A DNA stretch of 64,000 nucleotides from an uncultured Gammaproteobacteria bacterium (GTDB lineage: Bacteria > Patescibacteriota > Microgenomatia > JAMCZE01), in NCBI GenBank assembly GCA_964609775.1, contig CAZSSJ010000001.1, positions 22,858 to 86,857 of the forward strand, in the 5' to 3' direction. Numbering within the stretch: the first letter of the stretch is position 1; the number at the start of each line of letters is the position of its first letter. The position numbers were made by a program, and so were the translations under genes. The notes below the pieces were generated by a model. It made no database searches, was not told the DNA's origin, and saw nothing but the letters and a program-made list of their open reading frames with translations. Below are positions 5,774 through 32,997 of the stretch, piece after piece.

Positions 5774-5803
5774 TTGACAAATCTGGGTAAATCTCTTTAT
5801 TCT
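5774..5803 (+). promoter_or_regulatory. Candidate sigma70-type promoter for the giant gene
   Basis: TTGACA at 5774-5779, a 17-18 nt spacer, then TTATTC/TATTCT. It would give a leader of about 135 nt. Confidence 0.3.
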
Positions 5804-5945
5804 GATTATGTGAAAAGTTTTATTAGTATGTGTCACGAATTAAATTATTTAATTTGCAGCCCCACGACGCTCATGTTTGCGCCATGCACTACGTGTATGC
5901 TCGCAAGCAATCGCTTTGCGGGGCAAGGCCTGAGAAACTGCCAGA

Positions 5946-8900
5946 GTGGATAGGAACAAAGCAAAGGGAAAGTACAAGAAGCTTTTAAAGATCGGCGAGG
6001 CTGCGGCTGTTCTTGGCGTTTCCATTGACACGCTGCGCCGGTGGGACCAGGAAGGCAAGTTGAGTTCAATTAAGACCCCCGGGGGGACGAGATATTACTC
6101 CCTGGGCGATTTGCGCAAGATTAACCCTGAAGTCGGGGAGATTATCAAAACAGAAAAGCAGGAAAGGGCGTTTGACCTGACAGCTCTTTCTGAGGAGGCG
6201 AGGCGGGAATATTTGGAAAGCCCGATTGGAAGCCGGGGTGGCCAGCTTGCTCGACCAGGTCAGTCAAAGCGCATCAGTGGGGTCAGTTACCCGAGTCAGG
6301 TGGCGAAAGAAGCAGAGGCTGGGCTTCGAGCGAGAAAGCTGGCCTTGGGGGCGGCTTTGGCTGCAGTTGTTATAGGGTTGGTAGCGACTGGGGTTGTGGC
6401 GCTTCGAGGGACAGGATTGTTTAGGGGGGATTTGGTGAAGACCGGGAGTGAGAGGGAAGGTGCGGGTGAGGTTCTAGCTATTACCGCAGGGAAGAGCTTT
6501 TTGGAGATCGGGGCGGAGACGGTGTTTAAGGATCGGGTCGACTTTGGCGGTTCGGCCGACGGCTTTTCCGTTTTTGGGGGAGACACGGTGTCGCGGCGGC
6601 TGACGGTGACGGGGGCGGATGTGGCCTTAGACCAATCTCTGACGGCATCGTCTTCGCCGACGTTTGCTTCTTTGAAGCTTAGCGGGACGAGTGATCAGAT
6701 TGTGGTTGGGGGAAACGGAACGCTGACTTGGACACCAACGGCGGCGCGGACGGTGACATTTCCCGACGCGACTGGAACGGTTGTTCTGGACACGGCCACT
6801 CAAACCCTGTCAAACAAGTCACTTTCCGGATCAAGTAACACCTTCACGAACATTCCGAATTCGGCGCTGTCGAACTCGAAGATTACCATCAATGCGGGAA
6901 CAAATCTGGGAGGCGGAGGGGATGTGTCCTTGGGATCGAGTGTAACCATTGACCTGGATGACGCTATTTCCCTGACGTCGGCGACTTTTTCCGGGACGCT
7001 GGGGGTCGGGGGAACGGCTTCGGTCGGCGGGCAGATCATTCTTGACGGAGCGACCGCGGAGATTAACGCCACGAATAACCGGCCGCTGGACTTGGGGTTT
7101 GAGAACACCGGGGCGGTGCGGTTTTTGAACTCGACCAACTATGTTGACAGCAATAATAACTTGTATATCAACGGAGTGTTGGTCGCGGGGCCGACGACAC
7201 AAGGTTATTGGCAGAGGAATTCCGGGGCTTTGGCCCCGACGAATATTACGGACTCTTTGGTCGTCGGGGGGACGGCGACGGCGTCGGGAAAGTTTCAAGT
7301 CTACGGACTGTCGGCTCTTAATCCGGTGGCGAGCATTTCGGGGAGTTCATCGAAGGCCGCGTTCATCGTAGATAACACTGTTGGGGATTTGTTTACCGCT
7401 TCCTCCTCCGGCCTCAACCGTTTTGTGATTACCCAGAATGGAAATGTGGGGATTGGGACAAGCGCTCCGGCCTATAAGCTCGATGTCAACGGGTCGACGA
7501 ATATTGCTAATGGGTTGACGATTGCGGCCGGGAACTTGACTTTGACCGGGTCGCAGTCAATTGACGCGACGGGGATTTTGTCCATCGGGACTTCTAACCA
7601 AACATCGCTTCTTATCGGCCGGGTTGGGGCGCCGACGACGATCTACGGCTCGTCGGTGACGATCAGCTCGAGCACGTTTAGCTCCAATGCGGCGACGATT
7701 TCCGGGACGCTCGGCGTCGGGGGCGAAGCTTCGTTTTCGGCCAAAATTATTCTGGATTCGCCAACCTCGGAGATTAATGCCACGAACAGGCGCTATTTGG
7801 ATCTGGGGTTCATGAACACCGGCGGCGTGCGCTTTCTTAATGACACAAACTACATCACTCCGAGCGGGGATCTGTATTTAGCCGGCAGTTTGATCAGTTC
7901 CGGGACACAGGCGGGCTTCTGGCAGCGGCCGGCGAGCACCGGAGCCCTGGCCCCGATAAATATTACTGACTCACTGCTGATCGGCGGCACGGCGACAAGT
8001 TCAGCAAAATTTCAAGTCTATGGTCTCTCAGCGTTAAATCCGGTGGCGTCAATTTCGGCTTCGTCGGCAGTCGCCGGGCTCATGGTGGACAACACCGTCG
8101 GGGATTTGTTTACGGCAAGCTCATCGGGCTTAAACCGGTTTGTGATTACCCAGAATGGAAATGTGGGGATTGGGACGACGGCTCCAGTTGGACTGCTTGA
8201 TGTCGCGGCAACGGCCCCCTTCGTTATCACTTCGGCGGGCCAGGTCGGCATCGGGACGACGAGCCCGGTGGGACTTCTTCATGTTCAGGGAGCGTGTGTC
8301 ACGGGAGACACGCTGATTCGAGTCCGGCGTAGGAAGAAGAAGAAAAATGGTGACTGGGAAGATGAATGGCTTGATTTGCCAATTAAGCAGCTTAAGGCGG
8401 GGGATGAAGTGATGACACTGGATGAAAGGACGGGGGAGTTTACTACCTCAGTGGTTCGGGAACTCATGGACAAAGGGATTAAAACGACCTTTAAACTGAT
8501 GACCGCTGACGGCAAATCCATCCGGACAACAGCGGAACATCCTTATTTGGTGCAGGAAAGTGGCAGCCCGGACAGTAATTTCCTCTCTGGACTGACTTTT
8601 GCTTCAGTGAAAAAGATCTCCCAAGATTACTATTTCACTGTCTTGTCGGGCCGGAAGGTGGCTGTTAAAGCATTGGACGGCGAGATTGTGCATTTCACTA
8701 GCGAAGGGTTCTCTCATATTACTCACGAGAAGAAGAGCGAATTTGAAATAATGACGAGACTTTTTGCTCTGTCTAAAGTTTTGACGGTTCTGGAAACAGG
8801 TGTCAAAGTTTCTCAGAAAGACAGAAAGATCGTTAACGGCAAAGTTAATGATTATTGGACTTTGGAGGAAGTTGTTGAGGGCGTTTTAACTAAAGTTGTT

Positions 8901-11900
8901 GTCAGGTCGATTGAGGACGGGCCGAAGCAATTTTTGTCAGTTGTTTGGAAGGATAAGACTCCGGAAGCCACAAAAAATGTGGGGGACGTTGCCTCTCGCA
9001 TATTGCAGCGACGTGGACGAATGGTTACGTCTCAACGTAGGGCCCACGAGAAGTTTTATACCACAATTCTGGCCGATTTGTCAAGAGGGGTCTGGGGATA
9101 TAGAGGGATTTCCTTAGCGCAAGACTTAGTTTCCAAAAAGAAATGGGTTAAAGTGCGGTTTTTGAAACCCGGCATGGAGATCGCTACTTTCGGGCCTGAT
9201 GGCCGAATTTCCTGGCAGAAGATTGAGTCCATTGAGAAAGTGGGAGAGGAGCAGGTTTATGACATCGAAGTGGAAAACACTCACAATTTTGTGGCCGGGC
9301 ACTATATAGACAACACCAACCAGAGGGCCCTAATTTCACAGGAAGGAGAGATTCTACTTCGTTATCTGTCTTTTGAACAAAAGGAAGCCGAGGAACAGGG
9401 CGATCATGACCAAAGCAAAACCAATTTGGAAACGATTGAAAAATTCTGTCAGGTCAATCATGATTTTTTGCTCCAACTGTCCAAAATAACCGCCGACAGT
9501 AGACAAATTGTAGCCGAACCAATATTGCCTGTCAACACCCAGGCGTCCTTAATGGCGAAAAGTCCCAAGAGCAGTCCGGCTGCCAAGTCGATAAATAAGG
9601 AAGAAAAAATCTTGAGAACGGAAACCCTCATCGAGGAGAGTATAGAAAAGGTGGAGAACCTTGTCAATCGTTACAGGAAAGGCGAAATTCGGTTCGGTGG
9701 CATTGTGGCGCATAACACGACGGGGAAGGCATTGGTGGATCTGAACTACACCGGGACGGATCAGGCAATTTTGACAGCTTCTGTTTCGGGGACCACGAAA
9801 TTTGTCATTAACAATTCCGGTCAAGTGGGAGTGGGAACCGGAGCAAACAACAATACTTTGCTGGCGGATGTGGATTTGCGGACGCTGACGAACACGGTTC
9901 CGGTGGCTTCAATTGCCGGAAGCACGGGAGTGGCAGCCTTGGTGGTGGACAACGTTTCCGGGGATTTATTTACAGCCAGTAGTTCGGGTTTGAGTCGTTT
10001 TGTGATAGATAGGGGAGGGAATGTGGGGATTTCCTCGACGGCGCCGTCACAGAAACTGGACGTGGTTGGGGCGGTGCGGTTGGGAGCTAACGGGGGGGCC
10101 AATGACATTTTGAACACGACGGTTGGGGGAAGTGCCCCGAGCGGGGTTTTGTATTGGGGAAACAGGACGCTGTGTGACACTTCCGGCAACTGTTCGGGAG
10201 TCGGGGGGATTGTGGCCGGGAGCGGAGTCCAATATTACATTAGCAAATGGACTGATGCTTCCGGCACGACAATCGGCGATTCACTGCTGTATGACCCGGG
10301 CACGTCGGTGGGACTCAACACCACCTCGCCGGCGGCGATTTTTGACATTCGGGGCACGCAGGGAACTTCGGCTCTCTCCGGGACTTTGCCGGTGGCCAGC
10401 ATTTCCGGGAAAACAAGTTTTGCGGCGGTGGTGGTGAACAACGATTCGACGGTCGGGGACCTCTTCACGGCTTCGGCGTCGGGGTTAAGCCGGTTTGTCA
10501 TCACCAATACGGGCAACGTGGGCATTGGCACGGCACTTCCGGCCCAGTTGCTCTCGGTCGCCGGGGCGATCCAGTTAGGGAGCGGTTTGGGAGCAAATGA
10601 TGTTCTGAATACTGCTGCTGCCGGGGGGGTGCCGTCGGGACTGCTCTATTGGGGCAGCCGGGAAGTCTGTGATGCTTCGGGCAACTGCGCCGGAGTGGGC
10701 GGGCAGGTCCAGGGGACGGGAACCCAAAACTATATTACCAAGTGGAACAATGCCGGGGGAACGGCGATCGGGGATTCGCTGCTGTATGATTCCGGCTCGG
10801 CGGTGGGTCTGGGAACAACCTCGCCTTTGGGGACACTCCATGTGGTTGGGCAGTGCGTCGTCTCTGGCACAAGGATTCGGCGGCGACGCCGTCGCCGAGG
10901 CTATGGCGCCCGAGGGGCGGAAGAGTGGGTTGAGGAGGAAGTGCCAATTGAGGAGATTGAGCCGGACGATGAAATTGTGTCATTGAACGTTGAGAAGGGG
11001 CGGTTTGAGTGGCACAAGGTGGAAAAGACCCTTAATAAGGGGCTGCTTGCCGGGATGGCCCTTTCGACTTCGACGGGGAAGAGAATCGTGACCACGGGCA
11101 AACATCCATACCTGATGATCGACAAACCGGAAATTACTCAAGGGACTTTTGAGGTTGACCAATCGATTAAAGTGGAAGATTTGGGCAAGGCGACAATTGT
11201 GGGCTTTGCTTTGGGAAAACTGGCCTTTGCGGTGAAACTTCGACAACAGGACAAAAAGTTGATCCGTAGTGGTTTTCAGAAAGCCGGTAAGGAAGATCTC
11301 TTTGCTCCTTTGACCTTTGCCAATGTAGTGGTTAATCTCTTCCGGGCGGCCCAGATCTATCCGGCTAGAATCGCGCTTGATGAAGAATACACCGGCTTTT
11401 TCGGGGAGATTAAAGATATTATTAAAAAGTCCTTCCCGGATGCAGAGGTTTTTGAGACTAATCTGAAAGATTCTTCAGCTGCTCATCAAAGGGTCTGGGC
11501 GGTCAACAAAGGGAGAGCGAAAGAGGATGTCCTCTTGGTTCTTGAGGGCGGAGAATTAAAAGAAAGGCCGGGAGTTAAATCAACTCTGAGCGGAAGACCT
11601 TTGCCCCTGAATGGTTACAGGGGGACCAGTCAACCCATCGGCCTTTACTATGGTGAATTCTATCACCGAGGGGCGAATTTGTCAACCCCTTCGACAAGCT
11701 CAGGGTTGATAGCGAGAAAGACCGAGCTATCAAGGGCTCGATGGGCCAAAGCTGGAGATATTAGGGTCGGTCAGTATGTGGCGACGGAGGATGGGTTTGA
11801 GAAAGTGACGGGGATTTCTGACGCCGGCCGGGTGCTGATGTACGACCTTTCCGTTGCTAACACCCACAACTTCCTCGCCAACGGGATTGTGGCCCATAAC

Positions 11901-14900
11901 ACCGGGACGATGGCGATCGCGACGGTTTCGGGGGCGACGTCTTTTGCGGCCCTCACCGTGGATAACTCCGGCGTCGGGGATTTGTTTACGGCCAGTTCGT
12001 CTGGCTTAAACAGGTTCGTGATTACCCAGAACGGCAACGTCGGCATCGGGACGACGGCTCCAGTTGGACTGCTTGATGTCGCGGCAACGGCCCCCTTCGT
12101 TATCACTTCGGCGGGCCAGGTCGGCATCGGGACGACCTCGCCGGTGGGACTGCTGCATGTCCAGGGGGCGTGTGTGACGGGGGACACATTGTTGAAACGA
12201 CGGCGTAAGAAATGGCGGACACGCAGGTCCGCCCCTACGGAAATGGGACCGGATCCAGAAGGGGATGCTGAATCCACCAAAAAATCCGCTTACGCGGACT
12301 TGGTAAACCAGATCGGCTTGCTAAATGGCTGGCTTGATACCCTTACGGGTAATATATCAGATGGTGATGAAATTGTCAAGGATCAGATGGGCATGGACCT
12401 GCCGGGAGTTGAACCCGGTAGGCTTGGGGTATCAAGCCAGCCTAGCAAACCTGCCAGGCCCATGCCAATGAATAGTATAGCAGACGATGGTGACTATTAC
12501 TGGGAAGATGTGCGGATTGATGAAATTGAGGCGGGGGATGAAGTGATGACCCTGGATGAAAAGAGCGGGGAGTTTGTAGCCAGCACGGTTAAACAATTGA
12601 TGGTGATGGGGAATAAAAAGATCATTAAACTGACAACCGAGAGTGGAAAGACCATTCGGACAACGGAAAAACACCCTTATCTGGTCAAGGTCAAAGGAGA
12701 AAATCAGAAAACAGCCTTCGCTTTCATTGATGAAACAGGAATTACACTTGATCCCGGCCAACACCATCTTGGGGTGGGGGCTCTTAATAAAAAGGAGGAT
12801 GGTGCCTTAAAAGACACGTTTTGTCAAGGGGGAGGGAAGGTGTTTTGGCGTCAAGTTTCAACTCTCAAACCGGGAATGTTGATCGCGACAGTTGATGGCT
12901 TTGAGAAGATTATCAGGATTGAGGAACTGCCCGAGGAGATGGTTTATGACATTGAAGTGGAAAACACCCACAATTTTGTGGCCGGGCACTATGTCGACCA
13001 GGCTTCACAGACGGCGTTAAAAGCGGAGGAGGAAAAGTTTCTCTGTCTTTATCAACAAAACACGTTAACGAGAGAGTTTTCTCTTTTCGACCTTACCGAA
13101 GAAAATCCAAGCCAGAAAAAGGGCAATAAGCCCCAATCCAACTCCTATCCAGGCAGCGATATAAAATTGATCCAAAGTGGTGATCATATGTTTTCAAATA
13201 GCCAGTCTTCTAATTTGATGGCTATCCAGCTACAGAGCGTAGCAAAGATGAGGTTTGCTGTCAAGGCCAAGATGGGGTTGGACGAAGCGAATGATGCAAA
13301 AGCACCAAATATGAACCCAGTGGATAGGTTTGAGAGTATAGATGAAACTACCTTGACTTGGCTAGGGCGAATATTAAAAGAAAACTCCATTAACTTGACT
13401 TTAGACGAAGCGCTTTGTCTTATCAATAAATATGAGTCTGGGGAAATTGTTTATGGGGGCATTGTGGCGCATAACACGACGGGGAAGGCCCTGGCGAATC
13501 TGAACTACACCGGAACCGATCAGGCAATCTTTACAGCTTCTCAGGGAGGAGTGTTGAAGTTTTCTCTTAATGGCATCGGAACAGAGCATACGGCTTCGGT
13601 GGCGGGGACAACGTCTAAGGCGGCTCTGATTGTGGACAACACAATCGGGGATTTGTTCACGGCCTCGTCATCGGGCTTGGCTCGCTTTGTGATAACACAA
13701 AGCGGCAATGTGGGGATTGGGTCCGCCGCTCCCAGCGTCGCTCTGGATGTCACCGGAGCGGGGAAGACGAGTGGGGCCTTTACGGTGGGGAATAATTTGA
13801 CGGTGACGGCCGGGGGCCTCACGGTGACGGCCGGGAACATTGCCCTGACGGGGTCGCAGACGATTGACGGGACCGGGACGCTGACAATTGGCGGCACTTC
13901 GCAGACGTCGCTGGCGTTGGGGAGGAGCGGGGCGCAGACGACGATTTCCGGCGGGCCGGTGGTCGTCAACGGCGCTTCCTTTGCCTCGGCAGGGACAACG
14001 ACATTCACCGGCGGGAATGTGGGGATCGGGACGACGACGGTGACGGATTTTGCTTTGGAGATGGGCGGGAGCATCGGGCCGGTGACGACCGATCAATATG
14101 ATTTGGGGTCGGCCGCTCTCGAATGGAATAATTTGTATGTCAAAAACATTATTTCAACGGGGACGACGGCCGGATTTTGGCAGCGGGCGTCGGGGGTGCT
14201 GGCTCCGCAGAACATTACAGACTCGCTGATTATTGGCGGGACGGCAACATCCTCCGGGAAATTCCAAGTTTACGGCCTATCGGCTCTTAATCCAGTGGCG
14301 AGCATTTCCGGGTCTTCGGCAGTGGCCGCGCTTATGGTCGATAACACAGTGGGAGATTTATTTACGGCCTCATCGTCGGGACTAAATCGGTTTGTGATTA
14401 CTCAAAATGGAAATGTGGGGATTGGGAGCACGGTTCCTGTATCACGGCTTGATACAGGAGGAGGAACAATTTCACTTAATGGTGGGTGGTTGTCGAATGA
14501 TGGTGGAGCTGAAGGTGTGTTTGTTAAAACAGACGGGAATGTGGGTATCGGGACAAGTGCACCAGCCTATAGGCTTGATGTCGTCCACACCACACCGACT
14601 GCGGCAAATGGCAGTGTGTCACCAGATCAAATAGGATTGAGGGTTAACAGGGCCCACTATGTTGGGACCCCTGGACCCTACCCTAATGCTGTTTATGGCG
14701 TTTTGGGTCAAGGCCAAGCAGGTCAGGGGAGTGCCAGTGTGTCTTATTCCAATACGGTGGGTGCTAGAGGTGTGGCTGGACAAGCAATTGTCAATGTTAC
14801 GGGTGGTGCCAGTGTTACGGGTGCAAGTTCATTGTATGCGTTGAATGCTACGATTACTGCTGGAACTTTATCTAATCAATATGGATTATATGTTGAGTCG

Positions 14901-17900
14901 TTATCCGGGGCCTCCAACAATTATGGAGTTTATGTTGCTGGTAATAATTCCTCGTATTTTGGCGGCAACGTCGGCATCGGGACGACGAGCCCGGTGGGAC
15001 TGCTGCATGTCCAGGGGGCGTGCGTGACGGGGGACACCTTGTTAAAAAGACGACGGAAGCGGAAGAGCAAATATGGTGATTGGGAGGAAGACTATTGGGA
15101 AGACATTAGAATTGATGAGATCGAGGCGGGAGACGAAATATTAACTTTTGACGAAACCACTGGCGGATTTACTGCTTCTCAGGTTAGGGAGCTTATGGAT
15201 ATGGGTAAAAAGACCACGTTTAAGTTGGTAACGGAGGGCGGAAAGGAAATTCGGACGACAGCGAACCATCCTTACTTGGTCAAGTCAGCCAATACGAGTA
15301 ATTTCTTCAATGAGACTTTTAAAGTTGTGGCAGAAATTGCCAGGGCCTATTACTTTGCCACTTTAACGTCCTGGGATCCGATTGCTCCGGCCCTGAATAA
15401 TGAGAGAATAAGTATTTCTGAGGAAGGATGGCATCATCTTCATCATAAAGCCAGAAGCAGGGGAGAAATGTTGACGAGGTATTTTGCACTTCCCAAAGCG
15501 GCCGCTCTTCTTGCCAGCAAAGAAGCTCGCGTGACTTATGAACCCGGTGGGGATGGGGTCTCCGAGTTTTGGTCCCTTTATGGAACAGTTGATGATGTTC
15601 AGGTTAAGGTGGTTGTCCGATCAGTCAATAAAGGTCCGAAGTACTTTTACTCTGTCATCTGGAAGAGCGAAGTTAAAGAAGACACTAAAAAAAGAGCTGC
15701 CTCCTGCTTGTATCCGCAGTGTGGGGGAGTGATTACCCCTCAGCTCTTTAATGAGAGGATTATAGACCAGATGAGTGACTTTGTCAAGAAACGAAAGAGA
15801 GACTACCAGCTGGGCTCGTATCTCTCTGGGGAAGATTCTACTACTAAGTGGGTGAAAGTCAAACAATTAAAGCCCGGGATGGAAATTGCCACGGTGGGCG
15901 GGGATGACCAGATTTCTTGGCAGAAGATCAAATCTATTGAAAAAATCGGGGAAGAACAAGTCTTCGACATCGAAGTGGAAAACACCCACAATTTTGTGGC
16001 CAATGGGATTGTGGCGCATAACACGACGGGGAAGGCCTTGGCGAATTTGAACTATACGGGGACGGATCAGGCGATTTTCACCGCTTCGCAGGGGGGAACG
16101 TTGAAGTTTGCTTTGAATGGGACGGGGACGGATTTTACCGCCAGCGTCGCCGGGACGACTTCGAAGGCGGCTCTCATTGTGGACAACACCGTCGGGGATT
16201 TGTTTACGGCCAGCTCCAGTGGCTTAAACAGATTCGTGATTACCCAGAATGGAAATGTGGGCATTGGAATGGCGACGCCTTCTGCTACATTGGAAGTTAG
16301 AAAAGGTCCAATTCCCTCAACATTTGATTCATCTCTTGCTCTCTATTCTGCTGGTCAGTTTGTCAACACGAACACTAACTGGTATGACACGGAATTAAAT
16401 TTACTTGATACTAGGGACCAAGCTGCAGGAGTTGGCGGAAGGCTTGCTTTCGGTGGCGTTTATAGACAAGTTGGGACTACCAATGTAACAACCTTTGCGG
16501 CGATTGGCGGTTATAAAGAGAATTCTACTAGTGGTGATTATGCTGGATATCTCTCGTTTGAAACCAGACCTAACGGTGGAATTTTTACTGAACAGATGAG
16601 AGTTTCTAGTGCTGGCAACGTCGGCATCGGGACGACGAGCCCGGTGGGACTGCTGCATGTTCAGGGGGCGTGCGTGACAGGGGATACTCTGATTCGAGTA
16701 AGACGGCGCAAGAAGAAGAAGAATGGCGAGTGGGAAGATGAATGGCTGGACGTTCCCATTAAAGATATTCAAGCTGGGGACGAAGTGGCCACTCTGGACG
16801 AAAAGACGGGAGAATTCATCGTCTCCAAGGTTAAACAATTAATGAACATGGGGAGAAAAGTGGTCTTTGAACTTTTGACTGAGTCAGGAAAAGTCGTTAA
16901 AACTACAGAAAATCATCCGTATTTGGTTGACCAATCAGGGAAACAAATGGTCTCTGATCTCAGTGCTATCCAGAAGGAAACTTATGAGTTTGCTGAGAAG
17001 TTAGGAAAGAAATACTATGTGAACAACTTGGCTGGCAGGAAGGTTAAGTCTAGGGCTTTGGGCGAATTTGTCGAGTTTAGTCATTCTGGCTGGAACCATT
17101 TTGTGGAGAAAAGCCATTCAATTAATGAACTTATTACTCGATTCTTTGCTTTGCCTCGGGTGGTTACAGTTATCAGATCTAGTCCCCATGTCACTTCATA
17201 TAACATAGTCGAGAAAAAAGACATGACGATTGAATATTGGGAGTTGCAGGAAATTATTGACCATGTTCTTGTTAAAGTTCTAGTCTGCGCTGTTGATGGT
17301 GGACCGAAGTTTTTCTTGACGTGCACTTGGCTCGGGACAAAAGAGAATGAAGGGGTCAAACCAACTAAAAAAGAGCTGTCTCTCTCGCCTAGATCCCGCG
17401 AAATGCAGGACCAGTTGGGTCGACGTCGGGAACTGGTTATCCCTCAGCTCTTTAGTAGGGTGATTATACCAAAGAAAGTCAAGTGGGTCAAGGTCAAGGA
17501 TTTGACTGTAGGTGTGACTATTGCTACCAAAGATGGCTGGGAGAAAGTAGTTTCCATTAAAAAATTGGATGAACAACAAGTTTATGACATTGAAGTGGAA
17601 AACACCCACAATTTCGTGGCCAATGGGATCGTGGCGCATAACACGACGGGCAAGGCCTTGGTGGATCTGAACACCACCGGAGATCAGGCGGTCTTTACGG
17701 CTTCAGTTTCTGGAACGACGAAATTTGTGATTAACAATTCGGGGCAGGTGGGAGTAGGGACGGGGGCAAACAACAATACCCTTTTGGCGGATGTGGATTT
17801 GCGGACGCTGACAAACACTGTACCGGTGGCTTCAATTTCCGGAAGCACCGGAGTGGCAGCATTGGTGGTGGACAATGTTTCCGGCGATGTGTTTACGGCG

Positions 17901-20900
17901 TCAACTTCGGGATTGAGCCGGTTTGTGATTGACAAGAACGGAAATGTGGGGATCGGGAGTTCGGCTCCAGGATACAAACTGGATGTTTCGGGAACGGCTC
18001 ATGTCACCGGAGCAGTCACTTTAGATACGGCCCTGACGGTGGCCAATGGGGGGACGGGAGCCCAGACATTCACAGACAACGGCGTGCTCTTTGGCAACCT
18101 GACGGCCGCCATTGGAGCGACGGCCGAAGGAGCGACCGGGCAGTGCCTCATCGGGAACACCGGGAGCGCGCCATCATGGTCAGCATGTACCACGGCCTCA
18201 GGGCAGTTGTGGCAGGAAGCTTTGGGAGTGGTCGCGCCGCTGAACATCACGGATTCCCTGATTATTGGGAAGATCGCGACACCCAGCGGGGCCATTACCT
18301 CGGGCAGCATGCAGATTTACGGGGTGAACAACCTGACCCCGGTCGCCTCTATTTCGGGGGTCAGTGCGGTGGCGGCGCTCATCGTGGACAACACCGGCGG
18401 GGATGTCTTCACGGCCAGCACTTCGGGACTGACCAGATTTGTGATTGACAAGAACGGCAACGTCGGGATTGGGACAACGAGCCCGGATTATCCACTTGTA
18501 GTAGTAGGGACAGCTTCTGACGGAACACGGACACTTGAGGTAAAAAATTCAGTTGCTGGTAGTATATCTAATTTCCAAGTAACAGGTGATGGTGTCAACG
18601 CTCGCCTTATGGCGTTGTCTAGTTCGTATTCATCATCCGGGGCTTATGCTGCTGATACAGTTGTCTTAGACGACGATCAGGGTTACGCTGCTGGCCTTAC
18701 ACTACTTGCCCGTAATTCAAGTGGGTATATCCGAATGTTTACAGGCGGTTTTGATGACGGAAATGAGCGTCTGAGAATTAACAGCACTGGCAACGTCGGC
18801 ATCGGGACGACGAGTCCGGTGGGACTGCTGCATGTTCAGGGACAATGCGTCATTGCCGGAACAAAAATTAAAAGAAGAAAGAAGAAAGAAAAAAGAAGAA
18901 AGCAAGACACTGCCGGAACGGGGCCGGATCCGGTCGGCGATTGGGACTATGAAGATGTTCCCATCGAACAGATCGAACCGGATGATGAGATTCTTTCCCT
19001 AAACCAGGAAAAGGGCCAGTTTGAGTGGCACAAGGTGGAACAAACCATGAATAAAGGACTCCTGCCGGCCTTGGCTCTGACAACTTCTACTGGAAAGAGA
19101 ATTGTCACGACGGCAAAACATCCATATTTGGCGATCGATCGGCCGGAAACTACTCAAGGGACTTTTGAGGTGGATCAATCAATCAAGATCGAGAATTTGG
19201 GGGCGGCAAGCATTATAGGGTTTGCCCTGGGGAAACTAGCTTTTGCCGTTAAGCTGCCGCAGAAGGATAAGAAGATTATTCTCGCTCGTTATCAGAAGAA
19301 GAACCAAAAAGATGTTTTTGCCCATGAGACTTTTGCCCGATGTGTGGTTGCCGCCTTTAAGATTGCCCGGATTTATCCAGCGAGAATTGCTCTCGATGAA
19401 GAATACACCAGTTACTTCCGAAGAATCGAGAGCGTTATTAAGGAAAGTTTCCCTGACAGCGAGATTTTTCAAACCAACCTTAAGGATGGTTCCGCCGCCC
19501 ACAAAAAGGTCTGGGCTGTTAATAGGGGAATTTTAAGAGAGGATGCTGTTCTAAGTTTGGAATCGGGAGAATTAAAAGAAAGGCCGGGGGTTAAATCAAC
19601 CTTCAGAATGCCTTTGCCCCTGGTTGGTTACAGGGGGACCAGTCATCCACACGGCCTTTACTATGGAGAATTCTACTCCACGGAGCGGGAATTGTCAAGA
19701 GCAAAGTGGGTTAAGGCCGCGGAGGTTAGGAAAGGGATGTGTGTGGCGACGGAGGATGGTTTTGAGAAGGTCACAGGGATTTCCGATGCGGGGCAGGTGG
19801 CGATGTATGATCTGCAAATTGCCAACACTCACAATTTTGTGGCCAATGGGATTGTGGCGCATAACACGACGGGGAAGGCCCTGGTGGATCTGAACACCAC
19901 CGGGGACCAGGCGGTGTTCACCGCCAGTGTTTCCGGAAACACCAAGTTTGTGATTAACAATTCAGGACAGGTGGGAGTGGGAACCGGAGCAAACAACAAC
20001 ACGCTGCTGGCCGATGTGGATTTGCGGACGCTGACAAACACGGTTCCGGTGGCTTCAATTGCCGGGAGCACGGGGGTGGCGGCTCTGGTTGTGGACAATA
20101 CAGCCGGGGATCTTTTCACCGCCTCGTCAAGTGGGCTATCAAGATTTGTGATTGACAAGAACGGGAATGTGGGGATTGGGACGGCGGCGCCGACGGCTCT
20201 GGTGTCTTTAGCTAACTCGAACTATACGACGCAAAACATGTTGAACGTGGCGGGGACGTCGACAGGGTTGACGACCGGGTCACTGGCGAGTTTTGACTGG
20301 AGTCCGACGGACTGGTCGACCTCGAGCGGGAATTTGGTGAATATTAATCTTGGCAGTTTGGCCGACACGACGGGAAACATCTTTAATATTTCCGATGACG
20401 GCAGCTCGATCTTCTCGGTTTCGCCGCAGCAGATTGTCAACTCGTTGCCAACGTCATTTAATGCCGCCGGAGATGTGGCGATTGCCTATGACATTAATTT
20501 CACCAATCCGACGGCATCATACATTAAATCTGCTGCACCCATGTATTTGCAGGCAGGGGAGCTATTTAATTCCTCGGATTTGACGTTGAAGACCTTTAAC
20601 AAAGGCTTGATTGTTCTGGATCCAGATGAAGCGGTCACAATTGATGGGGCGGCTTCTGTGTCGGGGCAGCTCATGGTCGGCAGTACGACAGCGGCGCCGG
20701 CGCAGTTTGGCAAGTTCTATGTGACGGACTCTAACACGGCCACTTCTTCAGCCTTCATTGAAAACACTAACACAGCTGCAGCAATTTCGGGTTTGGTCAT
20801 TAAGCTGGGGAGTACGACCCTGGACACCACCTCGCATTTTGTTAATTTTCTTGATTTGAACGGCAAGATGATTGGCAACATTCGGGCAGCTAACACGACA

Positions 20901-21923
20901 ACGGTTGCTTATCAGACAAGCGGAATTGCGGATTTTGGGGAATGGATGAAAGTTTCTTCGGATTTGACTAATTTGTCTAATTGGACCAATTTGGTTTCTC
21001 CGGGGACGATTGTTTGTCAAAGCGCGGATGGGGTGGAGCCCTGCGAGGCGAGTGAGTCGGCGAGGATGGCGGGGGTGACTTCTGACACGACGGCGTTTTT
21101 GGGAGGAGAGGAGAAAGACGGAAGCGTGGTTGTCGGAATGTTGGGACAAATTCGAGTGAAGATCGCAACGGACTCAGCGCAAATTGAGCCGGGTGACGCG
21201 ATTGGGGTGGCGATCGCCGGTTTGGGAAAGAAAATTACGTCACGGGGATATGTGGTCGGCCGGGCGATGGAATCATGGTCCTCCGGACAAGAGAAAGTCT
21301 TAGTTTATGTCAACCCCGGTTACTTTGAGGGCCCCGAGTCGCAGCTGGCGTCGAAACTCTCGGTGGATGAGATTCAGGAACAGGTGGCGTCGATCAGTGC
21401 AAATTTGACTAATTTGTCTAATTGGTCCAATTTGAACAGCGACGAATTTGCGACGGTTTCGGGAAACCTGAAAGTTTTGGGAATGACGGAGCTTTCCAAC
21501 ACGACGATTGGCGGGTCGCTCACTGTGGGACTGGTCCATGTTGATGATTTGCTGGGCGATGTTTCCGGTTTGAATGGGAGTTTGAGTTTGCAAAACGGGA
21601 TGCTGACAATTAGTCAAATTGGACAAATTGGTCAAATTGGGGTTAACGGCGATTTGACAGTTTCCGGGGAGTTGACGGCGAAGAAGATTAACGTGCCGAC
21701 GGGAGTGGCTGGGGCCTCGGCGGGCAAGGCGACGATTCTTGCTGGACAAAGCGAAATTGAGATTACGACCAGCGCGCTTAGTGCTAATTCCTTGATTTTT
21801 GCGACACCGGAAGACGTGCCGGTGGCCGTCTCGACGACCAAGACAGCGACAGACAAGTTTAAGATCAAACTGGACTCCCCTGCGGGGGCAAACATCAAAA
21901 TTAATTGGTGGATAATCAATTAG
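5946..21923 (+). CDS. Giant repetitive surface protein (5,325-aa precursor; 3,069 aa after removal of six inteins)
   Basis: Single uninterrupted ORF with a GTG start. Many ...DLFTASSSGLNRFVITQNGNVGIGT... repeats. C-terminal ...GMLGQIRVKIATDSAQIEPGDAIG... module. Confidence 0.9.
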   Translation: MDRNKAKGKYKKLLKIGEAAAVLGVSIDTLRRWDQEGKLSSIKTPGGTRYYSLGDLRKINPEVGEIIKTEKQERAFDLTALSEEARREYLESPIGSRGGQLARPGQSKRISGVSYPSQVAKEAEAGLRARKLALGAALAAVVIGLVATGVVALRGTGLFRGDLVKTGSEREGAGEVLAITAGKSFLEIGAETVFKDRVDFGGSADGFSVFGGDTVSRRLTVTGADVALDQSLTASSSPTFASLKLSGTSDQIVVGGNGTLTWTPTAARTVTFPDATGTVVLDTATQTLSNKSLSGSSNTFTNIPNSALSNSKITINAGTNLGGGGDVSLGSSVTIDLDDAISLTSATFSGTLGVGGTASVGGQIILDGATAEINATNNRPLDLGFENTGAVRFLNSTNYVDSNNNLYINGVLVAGPTTQGYWQRNSGALAPTNITDSLVVGGTATASGKFQVYGLSALNPVASISGSSSKAAFIVDNTVGDLFTASSSGLNRFVITQNGNVGIGTSAPAYKLDVNGSTNIANGLTIAAGNLTLTGSQSIDATGILSIGTSNQTSLLIGRVGAPTTIYGSSVTISSSTFSSNAATISGTLGVGGEASFSAKIILDSPTSEINATNRRYLDLGFMNTGGVRFLNDTNYITPSGDLYLAGSLISSGTQAGFWQRPASTGALAPINITDSLLIGGTATSSAKFQVYGLSALNPVASISASSAVAGLMVDNTVGDLFTASSSGLNRFVITQNGNVGIGTTAPVGLLDVAATAPFVITSAGQVGIGTTSPVGLLHVQGACVTGDTLIRVRRRKKKKNGDWEDEWLDLPIKQLKAGDEVMTLDERTGEFTTSVVRELMDKGIKTTFKLMTADGKSIRTTAEHPYLVQESGSPDSNFLSGLTFASVKKISQDYYFTVLSGRKVAVKALDGEIVHFTSEGFSHITHEKKSEFEIMTRLFALSKVLTVLETGVKVSQKDRKIVNGKVNDYWTLEEVVEGVLTKVVVRSIEDGPKQFLSVVWKDKTPEATKNVGDVASRILQRRGRMVTSQRRAHEKFYTTILADLSRGVWGYRGISLAQDLVSKKKWVKVRFLKPGMEIATFGPDGRISWQKIESIEKVGEEQVYDIEVENTHNFVAGHYIDNTNQRALISQEGEILLRYLSFEQKEAEEQGDHDQSKTNLETIEKFCQVNHDFLLQLSKITADSRQIVAEPILPVNTQASLMAKSPKSSPAAKSINKEEKILRTETLIEESIEKVENLVNRYRKGEIRFGGIVAHNTTGKALVDLNYTGTDQAILTASVSGTTKFVINNSGQVGVGTGANNNTLLADVDLRTLTNTVPVASIAGSTGVAALVVDNVSGDLFTASSSGLSRFVIDRGGNVGISSTAPSQKLDVVGAVRLGANGGANDILNTTVGGSAPSGVLYWGNRTLCDTSGNCSGVGGIVAGSGVQYYISKWTDASGTTIGDSLLYDPGTSVGLNTTSPAAIFDIRGTQGTSALSGTLPVASISGKTSFAAVVVNNDSTVGDLFTASASGLSRFVITNTGNVGIGTALPAQLLSVAGAIQLGSGLGANDVLNTAAAGGVPSGLLYWGSREVCDASGNCAGVGGQVQGTGTQNYITKWNNAGGTAIGDSLLYDSGSAVGLGTTSPLGTLHVVGQCVVSGTRIRRRRRRRGYGARGAEEWVEEEVPIEEIEPDDEIVSLNVEKGRFEWHKVEKTLNKGLLAGMALSTSTGKRIVTTGKHPYLMIDKPEITQGTFEVDQSIKVEDLGKATIVGFALGKLAFAVKLRQQDKKLIRSGFQKAGKEDLFAPLTFANVVVNLFRAAQIYPARIALDEEYTGFFGEIKDIIKKSFPDAEVFETNLKDSSAAHQRVWAVNKGRAKEDVLLVLEGGELKERPGVKSTLSGRPLPLNGYRGTSQPIGLYYGEFYHRGANLSTPSTSSGLIARKTELSRARWAKAGDIRVGQYVATEDGFEKVTGISDAGRVLMYDLSVANTHNFLANGIVAHNTGTMAIATVSGATSFAALTVDNSGVGDLFTASSSGLNRFVITQNGNVGIGTTAPVGLLDVAATAPFVITSAGQVGIGTTSPVGLLHVQGACVTGDTLLKRRRKKWRTRRSAPTEMGPDPEGDAESTKKSAYADLVNQIGLLNGWLDTLTGNISDGDEIVKDQMGMDLPGVEPGRLGVSSQPSKPARPMPMNSIADDGDYYWEDVRIDEIEAGDEVMTLDEKSGEFVASTVKQLMVMGNKKIIKLTTESGKTIRTTEKHPYLVKVKGENQKTAFAFIDETGITLDPGQHHLGVGALNKKEDGALKDTFCQGGGKVFWRQVSTLKPGMLIATVDGFEKIIRIEELPEEMVYDIEVENTHNFVAGHYVDQASQTALKAEEEKFLCLYQQNTLTREFSLFDLTEENPSQKKGNKPQSNSYPGSDIKLIQSGDHMFSNSQSSNLMAIQLQSVAKMRFAVKAKMGLDEANDAKAPNMNPVDRFESIDETTLTWLGRILKENSINLTLDEALCLINKYESGEIVYGGIVAHNTTGKALANLNYTGTDQAIFTASQGGVLKFSLNGIGTEHTASVAGTTSKAALIVDNTIGDLFTASSSGLARFVITQSGNVGIGSAAPSVALDVTGAGKTSGAFTVGNNLTVTAGGLTVTAGNIALTGSQTIDGTGTLTIGGTSQTSLALGRSGAQTTISGGPVVVNGASFASAGTTTFTGGNVGIGTTTVTDFALEMGGSIGPVTTDQYDLGSAALEWNNLYVKNIISTGTTAGFWQRASGVLAPQNITDSLIIGGTATSSGKFQVYGLSALNPVASISGSSAVAALMVDNTVGDLFTASSSGLNRFVITQNGNVGIGSTVPVSRLDTGGGTISLNGGWLSNDGGAEGVFVKTDGNVGIGTSAPAYRLDVVHTTPTAANGSVSPDQIGLRVNRAHYVGTPGPYPNAVYGVLGQGQAGQGSASVSYSNTVGARGVAGQAIVNVTGGASVTGASSLYALNATITAGTLSNQYGLYVESLSGASNNYGVYVAGNNSSYFGGNVGIGTTSPVGLLHVQGACVTGDTLLKRRRKRKSKYGDWEEDYWEDIRIDEIEAGDEILTFDETTGGFTASQVRELMDMGKKTTFKLVTEGGKEIRTTANHPYLVKSANTSNFFNETFKVVAEIARAYYFATLTSWDPIAPALNNERISISEEGWHHLHHKARSRGEMLTRYFALPKAAALLASKEARVTYEPGGDGVSEFWSLYGTVDDVQVKVVVRSVNKGPKYFYSVIWKSEVKEDTKKRAASCLYPQCGGVITPQLFNERIIDQMSDFVKKRKRDYQLGSYLSGEDSTTKWVKVKQLKPGMEIATVGGDDQISWQKIKSIEKIGEEQVFDIEVENTHNFVANGIVAHNTTGKALANLNYTGTDQAIFTASQGGTLKFALNGTGTDFTASVAGTTSKAALIVDNTVGDLFTASSSGLNRFVITQNGNVGIGMATPSATLEVRKGPIPSTFDSSLALYSAGQFVNTNTNWYDTELNLLDTRDQAAGVGGRLAFGGVYRQVGTTNVTTFAAIGGYKENSTSGDYAGYLSFETRPNGGIFTEQMRVSSAGNVGIGTTSPVGLLHVQGACVTGDTLIRVRRRKKKKNGEWEDEWLDVPIKDIQAGDEVATLDEKTGEFIVSKVKQLMNMGRKVVFELLTESGKVVKTTENHPYLVDQSGKQMVSDLSAIQKETYEFAEKLGKKYYVNNLAGRKVKSRALGEFVEFSHSGWNHFVEKSHSINELITRFFALPRVVTVIRSSPHVTSYNIVEKKDMTIEYWELQEIIDHVLVKVLVCAVDGGPKFFLTCTWLGTKENEGVKPTKKELSLSPRSREMQDQLGRRRELVIPQLFSRVIIPKKVKWVKVKDLTVGVTIATKDGWEKVVSIKKLDEQQVYDIEVENTHNFVANGIVAHNTTGKALVDLNTTGDQAVFTASVSGTTKFVINNSGQVGVGTGANNNTLLADVDLRTLTNTVPVASISGSTGVAALVVDNVSGDVFTASTSGLSRFVIDKNGNVGIGSSAPGYKLDVSGTAHVTGAVTLDTALTVANGGTGAQTFTDNGVLFGNLTAAIGATAEGATGQCLIGNTGSAPSWSACTTASGQLWQEALGVVAPLNITDSLIIGKIATPSGAITSGSMQIYGVNNLTPVASISGVSAVAALIVDNTGGDVFTASTSGLTRFVIDKNGNVGIGTTSPDYPLVVVGTASDGTRTLEVKNSVAGSISNFQVTGDGVNARLMALSSSYSSSGAYAADTVVLDDDQGYAAGLTLLARNSSGYIRMFTGGFDDGNERLRINSTGNVGIGTTSPVGLLHVQGQCVIAGTKIKRRKKKEKRRKQDTAGTGPDPVGDWDYEDVPIEQIEPDDEILSLNQEKGQFEWHKVEQTMNKGLLPALALTTSTGKRIVTTAKHPYLAIDRPETTQGTFEVDQSIKIENLGAASIIGFALGKLAFAVKLPQKDKKIILARYQKKNQKDVFAHETFARCVVAAFKIARIYPARIALDEEYTSYFRRIESVIKESFPDSEIFQTNLKDGSAAHKKVWAVNRGILREDAVLSLESGELKERPGVKSTFRMPLPLVGYRGTSHPHGLYYGEFYSTERELSRAKWVKAAEVRKGMCVATEDGFEKVTGISDAGQVAMYDLQIANTHNFVANGIVAHNTTGKALVDLNTTGDQAVFTASVSGNTKFVINNSGQVGVGTGANNNTLLADVDLRTLTNTVPVASIAGSTGVAALVVDNTAGDLFTASSSGLSRFVIDKNGNVGIGTAAPTALVSLANSNYTTQNMLNVAGTSTGLTTGSLASFDWSPTDWSTSSGNLVNINLGSLADTTGNIFNISDDGSSIFSVSPQQIVNSLPTSFNAAGDVAIAYDINFTNPTASYIKSAAPMYLQAGELFNSSDLTLKTFNKGLIVLDPDEAVTIDGAASVSGQLMVGSTTAAPAQFGKFYVTDSNTATSSAFIENTNTAAAISGLVIKLGSTTLDTTSHFVNFLDLNGKMIGNIRAANTTTVAYQTSGIADFGEWMKVSSDLTNLSNWTNLVSPGTIVCQSADGVEPCEASESARMAGVTSDTTAFLGGEEKDGSVVVGMLGQIRVKIATDSAQIEPGDAIGVAIAGLGKKITSRGYVVGRAMESWSSGQEKVLVYVNPGYFEGPESQLASKLSVDEIQEQVASISANLTNLSNWSNLNSDEFATVSGNLKVLGMTELSNTTIGGSLTVGLVHVDDLLGDVSGLNGSLSLQNGMLTISQIGQIGQIGVNGDLTVSGELTAKKINVPTGVAGASAGKATILAGQSEIEITTSALSANSLIFATPEDVPVAVSTTKTATDKFKIKLDSPAGANIKINWWIIN
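5982..6404 (+). other. N-terminal MerR/excisionase-type HTH (aa 13-58) plus a single TM helix (aa 132-153) of the giant protein
   Basis: LLKIGEAAAVLGVSIDTLRRWDQEGKLSSIKTPGGTRYY matches the HTH_17/MerR pattern. LALGAALAAVVIGLVATGVVAL is a hydrophobic span. Confidence 0.6.
8295..9716 (+). mobile_element. Intein 1 (474 aa): class-A insert plus a 133-aa insertion between blocks F and G
   Basis: Starts CVTGDTLI after LHVQGA. Block B TTAEHPYLV, block F VYDIEVENTHNFVAG, ends GGIVAHN followed by Thr. Confidence 0.85.
10854..11900 (+). mobile_element. Intein 2 (349 aa): class-B insert
   Basis: Starts CVVSGTRI after LHVVGQ. Block B TTGKHPYLM, block F MYDLSVANTHNFLA, ends NGIVAHN followed by Thr. Confidence 0.85.
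12171..13475 (+). mobile_element. Intein 3 (435 aa): about 100-aa insertion after block A and a 157-aa insertion between blocks F and G
   Basis: Starts CVTGDTLL. Block B TTEKHPYLV, block F VYDIEVENTHNFVAG, ends GGIVAHN followed by Thr. Confidence 0.85.
15021..16022 (+). mobile_element. Intein 4 (334 aa): class-A insert
   Basis: Starts CVTGDTLL. Block B TTANHPYLV, block F VFDIEVENTHNFVA, ends NGIVAHN followed by Thr. Confidence 0.85.
16671..17642 (+). mobile_element. Intein 5 (324 aa): class-A insert
   Basis: Starts CVTGDTLI. Block B TTENHPYLV, block F VYDIEVENTHNFVA, ends NGIVAHN followed by Thr. Confidence 0.85.
18846..19865 (+). mobile_element. Intein 6 (340 aa): class-B insert
   Basis: Starts CVIAGTKI after LHVQGQ. 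Block B TTAKHPYLA, block F MYDLQIANTHNFVA, ends NGIVAHN followed by Thr. Confidence 0.85.
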
Positions 21924-21971
21924 GCTGGCTTGCCCTGAGCTTGTCGAAGGGTGGATTGTGAATTAACGAAA

Positions 21972-32993: not shown

Positions 32994-32997
32994 ATCT

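Follow-up and report, generated by a model that had tools for sequence, protein, structure and literature searches.

A giant membrane-anchored fibre protein of Patescibacteria with a BldC-like helix-turn-helix domain and a candidate operator in its own promoter

Introduction

In a stretch of 64,000 nucleotides from an uncultured, ultra-small bacterium (deposited under Gammaproteobacteria and placed by GTDB in the Microgenomatia lineage of the Patescibacteriota; GenBank assembly GCA_964609775.1, contig CAZSSJ010000001.1, positions 22,858 to 86,857 of the forward strand; hereafter the window, with positions counted from its first letter), a single giant open reading frame (ORF) joins a winged helix-turn-helix (HTH) domain, by way of a linker and one predicted transmembrane (TM) helix, to a very long fibre-like body. 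The fusion is conserved in related genomes, the HTH resembles that of the regulator BldC, and the promoter of the giant gene contains two direct 10-bp repeats that match the candidate site of this HTH subfamily. On balance, we favour with moderate confidence the view that the giant protein would bind these repeats through its HTH and regulate its own gene.

The Patescibacteria, also called the Candidate Phyla Radiation (CPR), are a large and almost uncultured group of bacteria with a presumed life attached to other cells, a contact for which their giant surface proteins are prime candidates. The design described here, in which a structural protein has its own cytoplasmic DNA-binding domain and a defined 10-bp candidate operator, is conserved and widespread in this group. 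If the binding is true, the direct-repeat mode of BldC would extend beyond the actinobacteria, the membrane-bound transcription factors would gain a MerR-type class, and a natural case of coupling between transcription, translation, and insertion into the membrane would be at hand. Database records name these proteins “MerR family transcriptional regulator, partial”, and in the literature searched for it we found no description of an architecture composed of an HTH, a TM helix, and a giant fibre.

A Conserved Fusion of a Helix-Turn-Helix Domain and a Giant Fibre

The giant ORF runs on the + strand from a GTG codon at 5946–5948 to position 21923 and encodes 5,325 amino acids (aa). An upstream in-frame TGA at 5931–5933 makes this GTG the earliest start available, and the first methionine is found only at residue 623. 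Residues 13–60 (5982–6125, + strand) form a MerR-type winged HTH, which is recognized by Pfam, AlphaFold, a PDB sequence search, and Foldseek: they match the Pfam family MerR (PF00376) with E=1.4e-13 and 50.8 bits (cut-off 28.2), and they also pass the curated cut-offs for PF13411 (MerR_1; 36.2 vs 21.6) and PF12728 (HTH_17; 29.7 vs 27). In the AlphaFold model, residues 11–60 fold as strand-helix-helix-wing-helix with a predicted local distance difference test score (pLDDT) of 85–90, residues 69–124 are disordered (pLDDT <50), and a long helix occupies residues 123–155. The low-complexity linker, predicted to be cytoplasmic, covers aa 61–131 (6126–6338); its sequence is neither conserved nor alignable among the orthologues, in which its length ranges from 27 to 170 aa (median 68). 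It leads into a single TM helix at aa 132–153 (6339–6404; LALGAALAAVVIGLVATGVVAL), the sole strong hydrophobic segment among the 5,325 residues (Kyte-Doolittle 2.41) and a putative signal-anchor with the N-terminus inside. The remaining ~5,170 residues (6405–21920) read as an extracytoplasmic body of tail-fibre-like repeats interrupted by six inteins. When lysines and arginines are counted on both flanks of the TM helix, the N-terminal side is the richer in 29 of 43 family members and the poorer in six. This positive-inside bias is consistent with the predicted N-in bitopic topology, in which the HTH lies in the cytoplasm and the body outside.

A preliminary description of this DNA, made from the sequence alone, had proposed a cytoplasmic HTH that is joined, through a linker of about 70 residues and one hydrophobic span, to a giant extracellular protein, and had recommended predicting the topology and looking at the orthologues. 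The Pfam, AlphaFold, and hydropathy results bear out this layout. The interval given there for it, 5982–6404, extends exactly from the start of the HTH through the last TM codon, and the topology prediction yielded the single N-in helix described above. The “thousands of residues of fibre-like repeats” mentioned in the same place are correct as far as the repeats are concerned, but 2,256 of the residues belong to the six inteins.

The orthologues also keep the fusion. When the part that follows the TM helix (aa 149–500) was used alone as a query, it retrieved homologues from Ca. Daviesbacteria, Microgenomates, and “Patescibacteria group” entries that bear an N-terminal MerR/HTH_17 domain, then a TM helix, and then the same fibre base (VLA.T...FLE.N.DT.ING). 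In a scan of one genome per species, which gave 558 relatives and from which 80 loci were kept, at least 44 loci have an HTH at aa ~22–58, a single TM helix at aa ~100–250, and a long body. These genomes are mostly Ca. Daviesbacteria/Microgenomates, and many metagenome contigs also retain the layout of HTH, linker, TM helix, and giant body. The complete orthologous ORFs are 656–3,440 aa long, several others exceed 3,600 aa up to the end of the fetched DNA, nearly all of them begin at an ATG 10–25 codons ahead of the HTH, and the synteny with the atp operon recurs among them. In 44 distinct HTH coding segments, the column entropies at the three codon positions are 25.0/14.8/54.6, and 62% of the codon differences are synonymous. 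This variation, biased to the third position, indicates that this frame of the HTH is translated and that purifying selection acts on it.

The start of the ORF could nevertheless invite the objection that a separate small HTH gene has been joined to the fibre gene by error, or that translation begins at or after the linker. The GTG is preceded by a weak Shine-Dalgarno sequence, no methionine is available for more than 600 residues, and an internal TTG at 6213 has an AGGAGG 15–20 nt upstream. In the giant ORF, however, neither a stop codon nor a frameshift occurs between the HTH and the TM helix; the ORF is uninterrupted from HTH to fibre in >60 independent assemblies; and the element GGCCTGAGAA (5927–5936) stands nine bases before the start codon both in the window and in L100, the locus of a close relative (L and P numbers are our designations for loci and proteins). 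Together with the ATG codons of the orthologues and the purifying selection on the HTH, these observations confirm that the fusion is conserved; it arises neither from an artefact nor from a wrongly called start. The two refutations that the preliminary description had itself considered, namely a separate gene fused by a sequencing error and a start downstream of the HTH, are ruled out by the orthologous ORFs and the codon evidence, and we regard the artefact as scarcely credible.

A BldC-like Domain

The closest PDB sequence matches of the HTH are the BldC-DNA complexes 6AMK and 6AMA (phmmer E about 1e-4). Foldseek aligns the domain with the same structures at template-modelling scores of 0.79–0.84 and a root-mean-square deviation of 1.0–1.2 Å over 47 residues, with 40% identity; the next fold matches are RacA (5i44), SoxR, and CarH. 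BldC of Streptomyces, the founder of the BldC family, is a MerR-like winged HTH protein that has neither a dimerization helix nor an effector domain. Its multimers assemble head to tail on direct repeats spaced by one helical turn, and the consensus for each protomer is AATTxxxx(C) (PMC5859096). The likeness extends to four of the DNA contacts: T27, R30, W31, and R47 of BldC correspond to T29, R32, W33, and R49 of the giant, and the wing glycines G44-G45 to G46-G47. Two further contact residues of BldC, K26 and H46, have D28 and T48 in their places. In an alignment of eight family HTHs (A1), K15, I16, A19, L23–V25, T29–W33, G37, K38, G47, and R49 are invariant.

The features of a classical MerR protein are lacking. 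The coiled-coil dimerization helix is absent, since the AlphaFold model has short helices followed by disorder and the MerR_1 match covers only positions 2–45 of the 69 in the profile; there is no C-terminal effector-binding domain, because the linker runs directly into the TM helix; and the promoter has, in place of a palindromic operator in a 19–20 bp spacer, an 18-bp spacer with two direct repeats. Judged by its sequence and its predicted structure, the domain is a BldC-like MerR-type winged HTH and not a classical palindrome-binding MerR. What it shares with BldC is a winged HTH without the dimerization and effector parts, four of the DNA-contacting residues, and candidate sites in the form of direct 10-mers at 10-bp spacing. 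The predicted tandem has the geometry of the direct repeats, about one helical turn apart, on which BldC binds cooperatively and head to tail. In contrast, BldC is a free cytoplasmic protein of 68 residues with a developmental regulon, whereas the domain described here is the N-terminus of a membrane protein of 5,325 residues, belongs to a subfamily that is sometimes duplicated (eight copies in P0065), and has its candidate sites at its own promoter.

Direct Repeats in the Promoter of the Giant Gene

In the orthologues, the promoter has the form of a cassette, cTTGACA-AATCTATGCA-AATCTATGTA-cgatgg, in which two direct 10-mers fill the 18-bp spacer, and the early leader usually adds GAATCTATGCA-N12-13-TGCATAGATTT, a further copy and an inverted copy. 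The candidate 10-mer has the consensus AATCTATG(C/T)A, and the Daviesbacteria consensus is TTGACAAATCTATGCAAATCTATGTACGAT. Among 168 matches to the 10-mer with at most one mismatch in 643 kb of orthologous loci, 107 fall within 300 nt upstream of the gene, a zone that makes up 2% of this DNA. The far matches that were examined are single copies, mostly in coding regions (for example, in the atp genes), and nothing in them pointed to a regulon. When metagenomes were scanned for the 26-nt promoter cassette by DNA only, 17 loci were found, 16 of them with downstream sequence. In 15 of these 16, an ORF of the HTH-bearing family starts 60–145 nt downstream, almost always with a TM helix where the sequence is long enough, and the sixteenth is apparently a frameshifted copy.

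The promoter of the window is homologous to the TTGACA-AATCT... promoters of 39 orthologues, which it resembles both in its sequence and in its position. This sigma-70-type promoter (5774–5803, + strand; 10/12 in a consensus scan) consists of a -35 element TTGACA at 5774–5779, an 18-bp spacer, and a -10 element TATTCT at 5798–5803. The direct 10-bp repeats AATCTGGGTA and AATCTCTTTA at 5780–5799, the candidate operator of the protein’s own HTH, follow the TTGACA directly and end in the -10 element. They were found with a site matrix that was built solely from the orthologue promoters and scanned over ~128,000 window positions: the tandem pair ranks first in the window with a score of 20.9, the next independent pair reaches 11.9, and the two sites taken singly rank 3rd and 36th. 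When compared with 210 background windows (median 2.6, maximum 12.4), the window tandem scores 20.8. Simple matches to AATCTATGCA with at most two mismatches are not enriched in the window (33 matches vs 46 expected), and only the position-weighted tandem test picks out the promoter pair.

As an example of a target, the preliminary description had named the palindromic 9-mer arrays at 21978–22023, which are not supported in this role. They proved to be coding repeats of ATTAGAC, direct and inverted (aaATTAGACggATTAGACtaattgGTCTAATtagg), that fall in the N-terminal 25 codons of the giant ORF that comes next and are translated as QIRRIRLIGLIRPIW. With the AATCTATGCA matrix they have no relation and no score, nor do they appear among its top hits in the window, the best pair being that at 5780–5799 instead.

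It should also be mentioned that, in a subgroup of the orthologues, mostly those with two HTHs, the 10-mer occurs again within the gene, in codons immediately preceding the TM segment. One to three copies of AAAATCTATGCA at 12-nt spacing encode (K)IYA repeats, always as ATC TAT GCA (L006 about 10605–10640, L019 about 10347–10382, and L037 about 10320–10342; also L008, L003, and L042), which suggests a putative operator or roadblock inside the gene.

The Site Follows the HTH Subtype

The closest relatives of the window protein in the ectodomain (P0029, P0030, P0069, P0071, and P0073) have the same fibre base, and the full-length ones among them (P0069, P0071, and P0073) share its NWW(I/V)(I/V)N C-terminus. 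Their N-terminal domain is a different MerR-like domain (..ANRIRYWSTIGLIPH..), recorded as a weak MerR_1 match. The promoters of five such variant-HTH giants have tandem scores of -1.6 to 7.2, which is background (maximum 12.4), whereas 38 of the 44 canonical-HTH giants score >15. The window is nearest to the variant-HTH group in its ectodomain and its leader, and yet it has both the canonical HTH and the tandem, with its score of 20.8. Of the six canonical loci with low scores, four have wings or recognition helices that have diverged.

The same 10-mer is found with proteins of other kinds. In other CPR phyla (Parcubacteria, Saccharibacteria, and others; L052, L053, L054, L056, L063, L065, L066, L067, L076, L078, and L079), soluble proteins of 239–245 aa combine the HTH with a C-terminal part that is HATPase-like by eye, and they have nothing in common with the giants except this LGVSIDTLRRW-type HTH. 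Their genes carry two or three direct copies of the 10-mer, read as TGCATAGATT, 30–90 nt upstream of the start codons; the copies are ~21 bp apart from centre to centre (N10-11 spacers) and overlap a putative -35 region. From its upstream sequences, this looks like a widespread autoregulated family. A third architecture is that of small tail-anchored proteins of 209–263 aa from Woesebacteria and others (L051, L057, L064, L068, L070, L071, L073, L074, and L075), which have the same HTH, a low-complexity linker of ~130 aa, and, at the C-terminus, a TM helix with ..SPIP at its end. In other words, the unit of HTH, tether, and TM helix exists also without an ectodomain. An exact copy of the 10-mer is present at three of 11 such small genes. 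In our computations, the candidate 10-mer is associated exclusively with this HTH subfamily, and its recurrence across three protein architectures suggests that it follows the HTH and not the remainder of the protein. In three cyanobacterial homologues (L047, L055, and L062), a different motif, (C/T)CTAG(A/G)TT, occupies the equivalent upstream place.

The HTH itself is repeated in some members. In P0065 (623 aa), eight HTHs precede a TM helix; the soluble proteins P0095, P0113, P0122, and P0186 (240–320 aa) each have four matched stretches in the representative search, which by reading are four HTHs in P0095, P0113, and P0122; and several giants have two HTHs before the TM helix. P0070, P0081, P0082, P0097, and P0108 also belong to this group with tandem HTHs, and in P0102 (5,281 aa) the HTH and TM helix are joined to a body of repeats that appear Kelch-like by eye. 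The multi-HTH members would fit a multi-site mode of DNA binding.

Upstream of the variant-HTH gene of P0029 (L099, 1300–1343), there are four units of nGTCGTGAnn with an exact 10-nt period that end at the ATG, and the promoter spacer of L100 holds TTCGTGAAAA. As a site of the variant domain, TCGTGA is at most a tentative candidate: it occurs four times in L099 and once in L100, is missing from L101 and L103, and is found in L102 only once, upstream of the -35 element; the variant loci share TTTGC-N5-GCAAA leader palindromes instead. The inferred 5' leader of the window (5810–5945, + strand), which is homologous to the leaders of the closest ectodomain relatives L100, L101, and L103, contains such TTTGC..GCAA palindromes at 5877–5889 and 5915–5926, followed by GGCCTGAGAA. 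Both the palindromes (TTTGC-N3-6-GCAA(A)) and a (G)CCTGAGA(A/G)AC element are common to the leaders of the window and of the variant-HTH relatives (L100, 830–851; L101, L102, and L103). These elements could serve the variant MerR domain as an operator or could form RNA hairpins; the window leader as a whole folds no better than shuffled sequences (z=0.04), and Rfam has zero family matches across the window. The leaders of the orthologues contain another element, GCAGACGGA, conserved 10–35 nt before the ATG (for example, L007:9974–10025, L009:9979–10030, and L024:9967–10015). It can pair with a stretch just after the ATG, either with CCGTCTG or, in a shifted register, as GGACAA with TTGTCC, which would place the start codon in the loop of a hairpin. 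RNAalifold yielded only five pairs, invariant or G-U, without any compensatory change, which leaves this hairpin plausible and unproven, and the element is not recognizable in the window leader.

A Proposed Mechanism and Its Alternatives

We consider it moderately probable that the giant HTH binds the repeats in its own promoter and that the gene is in this way autoregulated. In this model, the HTH would occupy the direct repeats at 5780–5799, which are one helical turn apart, in a head-to-tail arrangement like that of BldC, and the HTHs of fibres that are already in the membrane would reach the nucleoid by means of the flexible tether. The fibre would be its own membrane-anchored transcription factor, and the number of fibres would feed back on the transcription of the 16-kb gene. 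Repression would be the likelier sign, because the sites cover the spacer in the core promoter, overlap the -10 element, and, in most orthologues, extend over the first ~40 transcribed bases, although an activating distortion of the 18-bp spacer in the style of MerR and BldC may also be considered. Occupancy would at the same time keep the locus fixed at the membrane, into which the product of the 16-kb message must be inserted. The fibres are probably clustered as trimers, as suggested by the Peptidase_S74/G2 domains of relatives and a sub-threshold match in the window protein. The preliminary description had offered two functions, a membrane-tethered transcription factor and a tether of DNA at the membrane; with this type of HTH and cognate-looking sites, both seem reasonable, and they are compatible with each other.

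Several observations weigh against this reading. Two BldC residues, K26 and H46, are replaced by D28 and T48 in the giant. The sites of the window keep AATCT....TA and deviate from the consensus at positions 6–8, and the third and inverted copies of the Daviesbacteria leaders are missing; with degenerate sites and without the downstream copies, the case of the window rests on the tandem and the family-wide pattern. L036 and L077 have an apparently canonical first HTH and no good tandem, and the contrast with the variant HTH comes from only five loci. The promoter and the HTH are adjacent and could have been co-inherited, so that part of their association may be phylogenetic. Soluble proteins with the same HTH and an upstream 10-mer are widespread in the CPR, and a soluble paralogue of this kind, encoded outside the 64 kb of this genome that are visible, may be the real regulator of the sites. 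Finally, the internal TTG at 6213 may give rise to a minor HTH-less isoform.

A more daring version of the autoregulatory model, which we hold to be unlikely, is that the HTH acts in cis during translation. The HTH would leave the ribosome first, about 5,300 codons before termination, and on a coupled transcript could at once seize the repeats of its own promoter, and the insertion of the TM helix would then fasten the gene to the translocon. Each fibre would silence and tether its own gene copy, with one transcription burst per fibre and with obligatory transertion of the 16-kb message. The later loss of the fibre, its cleavage, or pulling at host contact would free the promoter, which would amount to a Notch-like counter of intact fibres, and anchors composed of one or more HTHs and a TM helix would be a general patescibacterial wiring of surface structures to their own genes. 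It is unlikely, in our opinion, that the 10-mers are controlled by another regulator, a soluble protein of this HTH subfamily such as the 239-aa proteins with an HTH and an HATPase-like part, and that the HTH of the giant is a membrane-bound decoy or competitor, or has other targets (a regulon, or the chromosome at large) in the manner of a RacA-like anchor. Apart from the wide occurrence of soluble relatives, this idea draws on a stand-alone HTH_17 gene of 78 aa in L001, 2.6 kb upstream of the orthologue there, and on RacA, whose MerR-like winged HTH ties DNA to the pole of the cell (5i44 among the fold hits; PMC5859096). In the 64-kb window, however, there is no second HTH of this type (the family HMM gave one match, E=4.4e-26, against the six-frame translation). 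Moreover, the DNA search found the cassette only at genes for HTH-TM fibres, the soluble genes that were examined carry copies of their own, and the tandem is gone where the giant’s own HTH is of the variant type.

A layout in which a flexible linker and one TM helix connect the cytoplasmic DNA-binding domain to a huge ectodomain would also suit a protein from which the HTH is released, as in the regulated intramembrane proteolysis of Notch, RsgI, and RseA: the intact protein would be inactive, and damage to the fibre, shedding, or host contact would lead to cleavage near or in the membrane and to a freed soluble regulator. Of the readings considered, this one comes nearest to the sensor role that the preliminary description had suggested for the surface fibre. 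The ectodomain does contain autoprocessing modules, namely the inteins and the weak intramolecular-chaperone match. On the other hand, neither a site-2 protease nor any other signalling partner is encoded within the window, the linker and the TM helix, neither of them conserved in sequence, show no evident conserved cleavage motif, and the tail-anchored proteins have almost no ectodomain with which to sense. We judge such a release to be very unlikely. Even more doubtful is the view that the HTH is a module for protein interaction or anchoring, or a handle for targeting or assembly, and does not bind DNA. HTH folds have been reused for protein contacts in some bitopic proteins, such as RodZ, whose HTH binds MreB, and the degenerate sites of the window would agree with this. 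But four of the residues that contact DNA in BldC have counterparts that are invariant in alignment A1, a specific 10-mer tracks the HTH across three unrelated protein architectures, and members with 2–8 tandem HTHs suit repeated DNA sites.

Comparison with Known Systems

ToxR-like regulators (ToxR, TcpP, CadC, and VtrA/VtrB) have the layout predicted for the giant: a cytoplasmic N-terminal DNA-binding domain, a linker, one TM helix, and an extracytoplasmic C-terminal part. Their DNA-binding domain is a winged helix of the OmpR/PhoB type, and their outer domains are small ligand sensors rather than a structural fibre of >3,000 residues. Unlike them, the giant has a MerR/BldC-type domain, and its own promoter is the only candidate target. 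ToxR-like proteins act on DNA while they are bound to the membrane, capture their target loci there, and have been linked to transertion (PMC9977878, PMC6320335, PMC11856585); for VtrA/VtrB, the capture of a locus at the membrane has been shown (PMC9977878). They regulate other genes upon signals, whereas the candidate target of the giant is its own gene. The giant protein resembles the ToxR type in its layout and BldC in its DNA-binding module, and it is a full member of neither.

RacA, which reaches the membrane via DivIVA, has the same MerR-like winged HTH fold (5i44) and differs in having neither a TM helix nor an ectodomain. This soluble protein of Bacillus subtilis fastens DNA to the cell envelope, instead of serving as a classical regulator, and recognizes a GC-rich site as a symmetric dimer (PMC5859096). 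Phage tail fibres and tailspikes with a C-terminal intramolecular chaperone (Peptidase_S74 or Peptidase_G2) have similar Gly/Thr-rich repeats, and full-length relatives of the giant contain Peptidase_S74. Unlike these phage proteins, the giant is cellular and membrane-anchored, and its gene lies in a chromosomal housekeeping neighbourhood beside the atp operon.

The Fibre Body and Its Inteins

The body of the giant is made of repeats of the type ..GNVGIGTTSP..L.V.G.., and the conserved fibre base VLAIT..FLEI.. is common to the orthologues. Towards the C-terminus, there is a weak match to Peptidase_G2, an intramolecular-chaperone autocleavage domain (20868–21110, + strand; E=7.1e-5, 22.8 bits vs a cut-off of 25 bits). 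Among the relatives, P0071 and P0073 carry Peptidase_S74, and P0069 has a faint Peptidase_G2 match. The protein ends in ..KINWWIIN (21903–21920), and the corresponding motif (F/I)(N/D/K)W(W/F/V)(I/V)(I/V/L)(N/D/E) is conserved in many divergent giant fibres (P0062, P0069–P0073, P0081, P0102, and others), which may point to a sorting or anchoring signal.

The body is interrupted by six inserts that pass the 35.8-bit cut-off of PF14890 (Intein_splicing). On the + strand, they lie at 8295–9716 (aa 784–1257, 54.6 bits), 10854–11900 (aa 1637–1985, 57.5 bits), 12171–13475 (aa 2076–2510, 52.4 bits), 15021–16022 (aa 3026–3359, 77.1 bits), 16671–17642 (aa 3576–3899, 75.3 bits), and 18846–19865 (aa 4301–4640, 54.4 bits). 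Their combined 2,256 aa amount to 42% of the ORF, and 3,069 aa would remain after the predicted splicing. Each of them has the full class-1 set of Cys1, a block-B TxxH (TT..HP), a terminal HN (..VAHN), and Thr+1, and all six are inserted at an identical point of the fibre repeat, ..LHV(Q/V)G(A/Q)|C ... HN|T(T)GKAL.., with pairwise identities of 26–67% among them. No homing endonuclease of the LAGLIDADG, HNH, or GIY-YIG type was detected in the inteins at E<=0.1, the only match being a weak LPD3 in inteins 1 and 5. The six inteins presumably splice out; by analogy with bacterial intein-like (BIL) domains, cleavage without ligation may be an alternative fate. After its first beta-strand, every intein has a run of 6–10 arginines and lysines (CVTGDTLIRVRRRKKKKNGDWEDEW...; for example, RRRKKKK at aa 794–800, 8325–8345), and such basic tracts are odd for a chain that has to cross a membrane. 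Inteins are also found in the orthologues P0034, P0063, P0068, and P0080, and L025 has three HN+T/S/C motifs.

The maxima recorded earlier for a single protein were four inteins and then five, the latter in Prp8 of Anaeramoeba (a 2023 survey, PMC10710043), and the distribution of inteins is heavily skewed towards proteins of replication and repair (PMC4760082). BIL domains sit in variable surface proteins (PMC7765530). The inserts of the giant are like BIL domains in that they are found in a surface protein, and like class-1 inteins in their catalytic set. Six inteins in one exported surface protein exceed the maxima of PMC10710043 in a host that is not a replication enzyme, and they are of independent interest for the intein field.

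Genomic Neighbourhood

Directly upstream of the giant gene are the genes for ATP synthase alpha, gamma, beta, and epsilon. Directly downstream (21951–28067, + strand), a second giant surface protein of 2,038 aa has an N-terminal TM helix, a DUF2341 domain, and five LamG domains, and it is followed by dockerin/Big_7/SBBP and cohesin-like/Big_7 proteins at 29619–32993 and 32983–34257 (+ strand). From these annotations, the region looks like a surface-structure island that adjoins the atp operon. Further along the window are RuvABC, LeuRS, and ComEA/ComEC, and the neighbourhood as a whole is chromosomal housekeeping typical of Patescibacteria.

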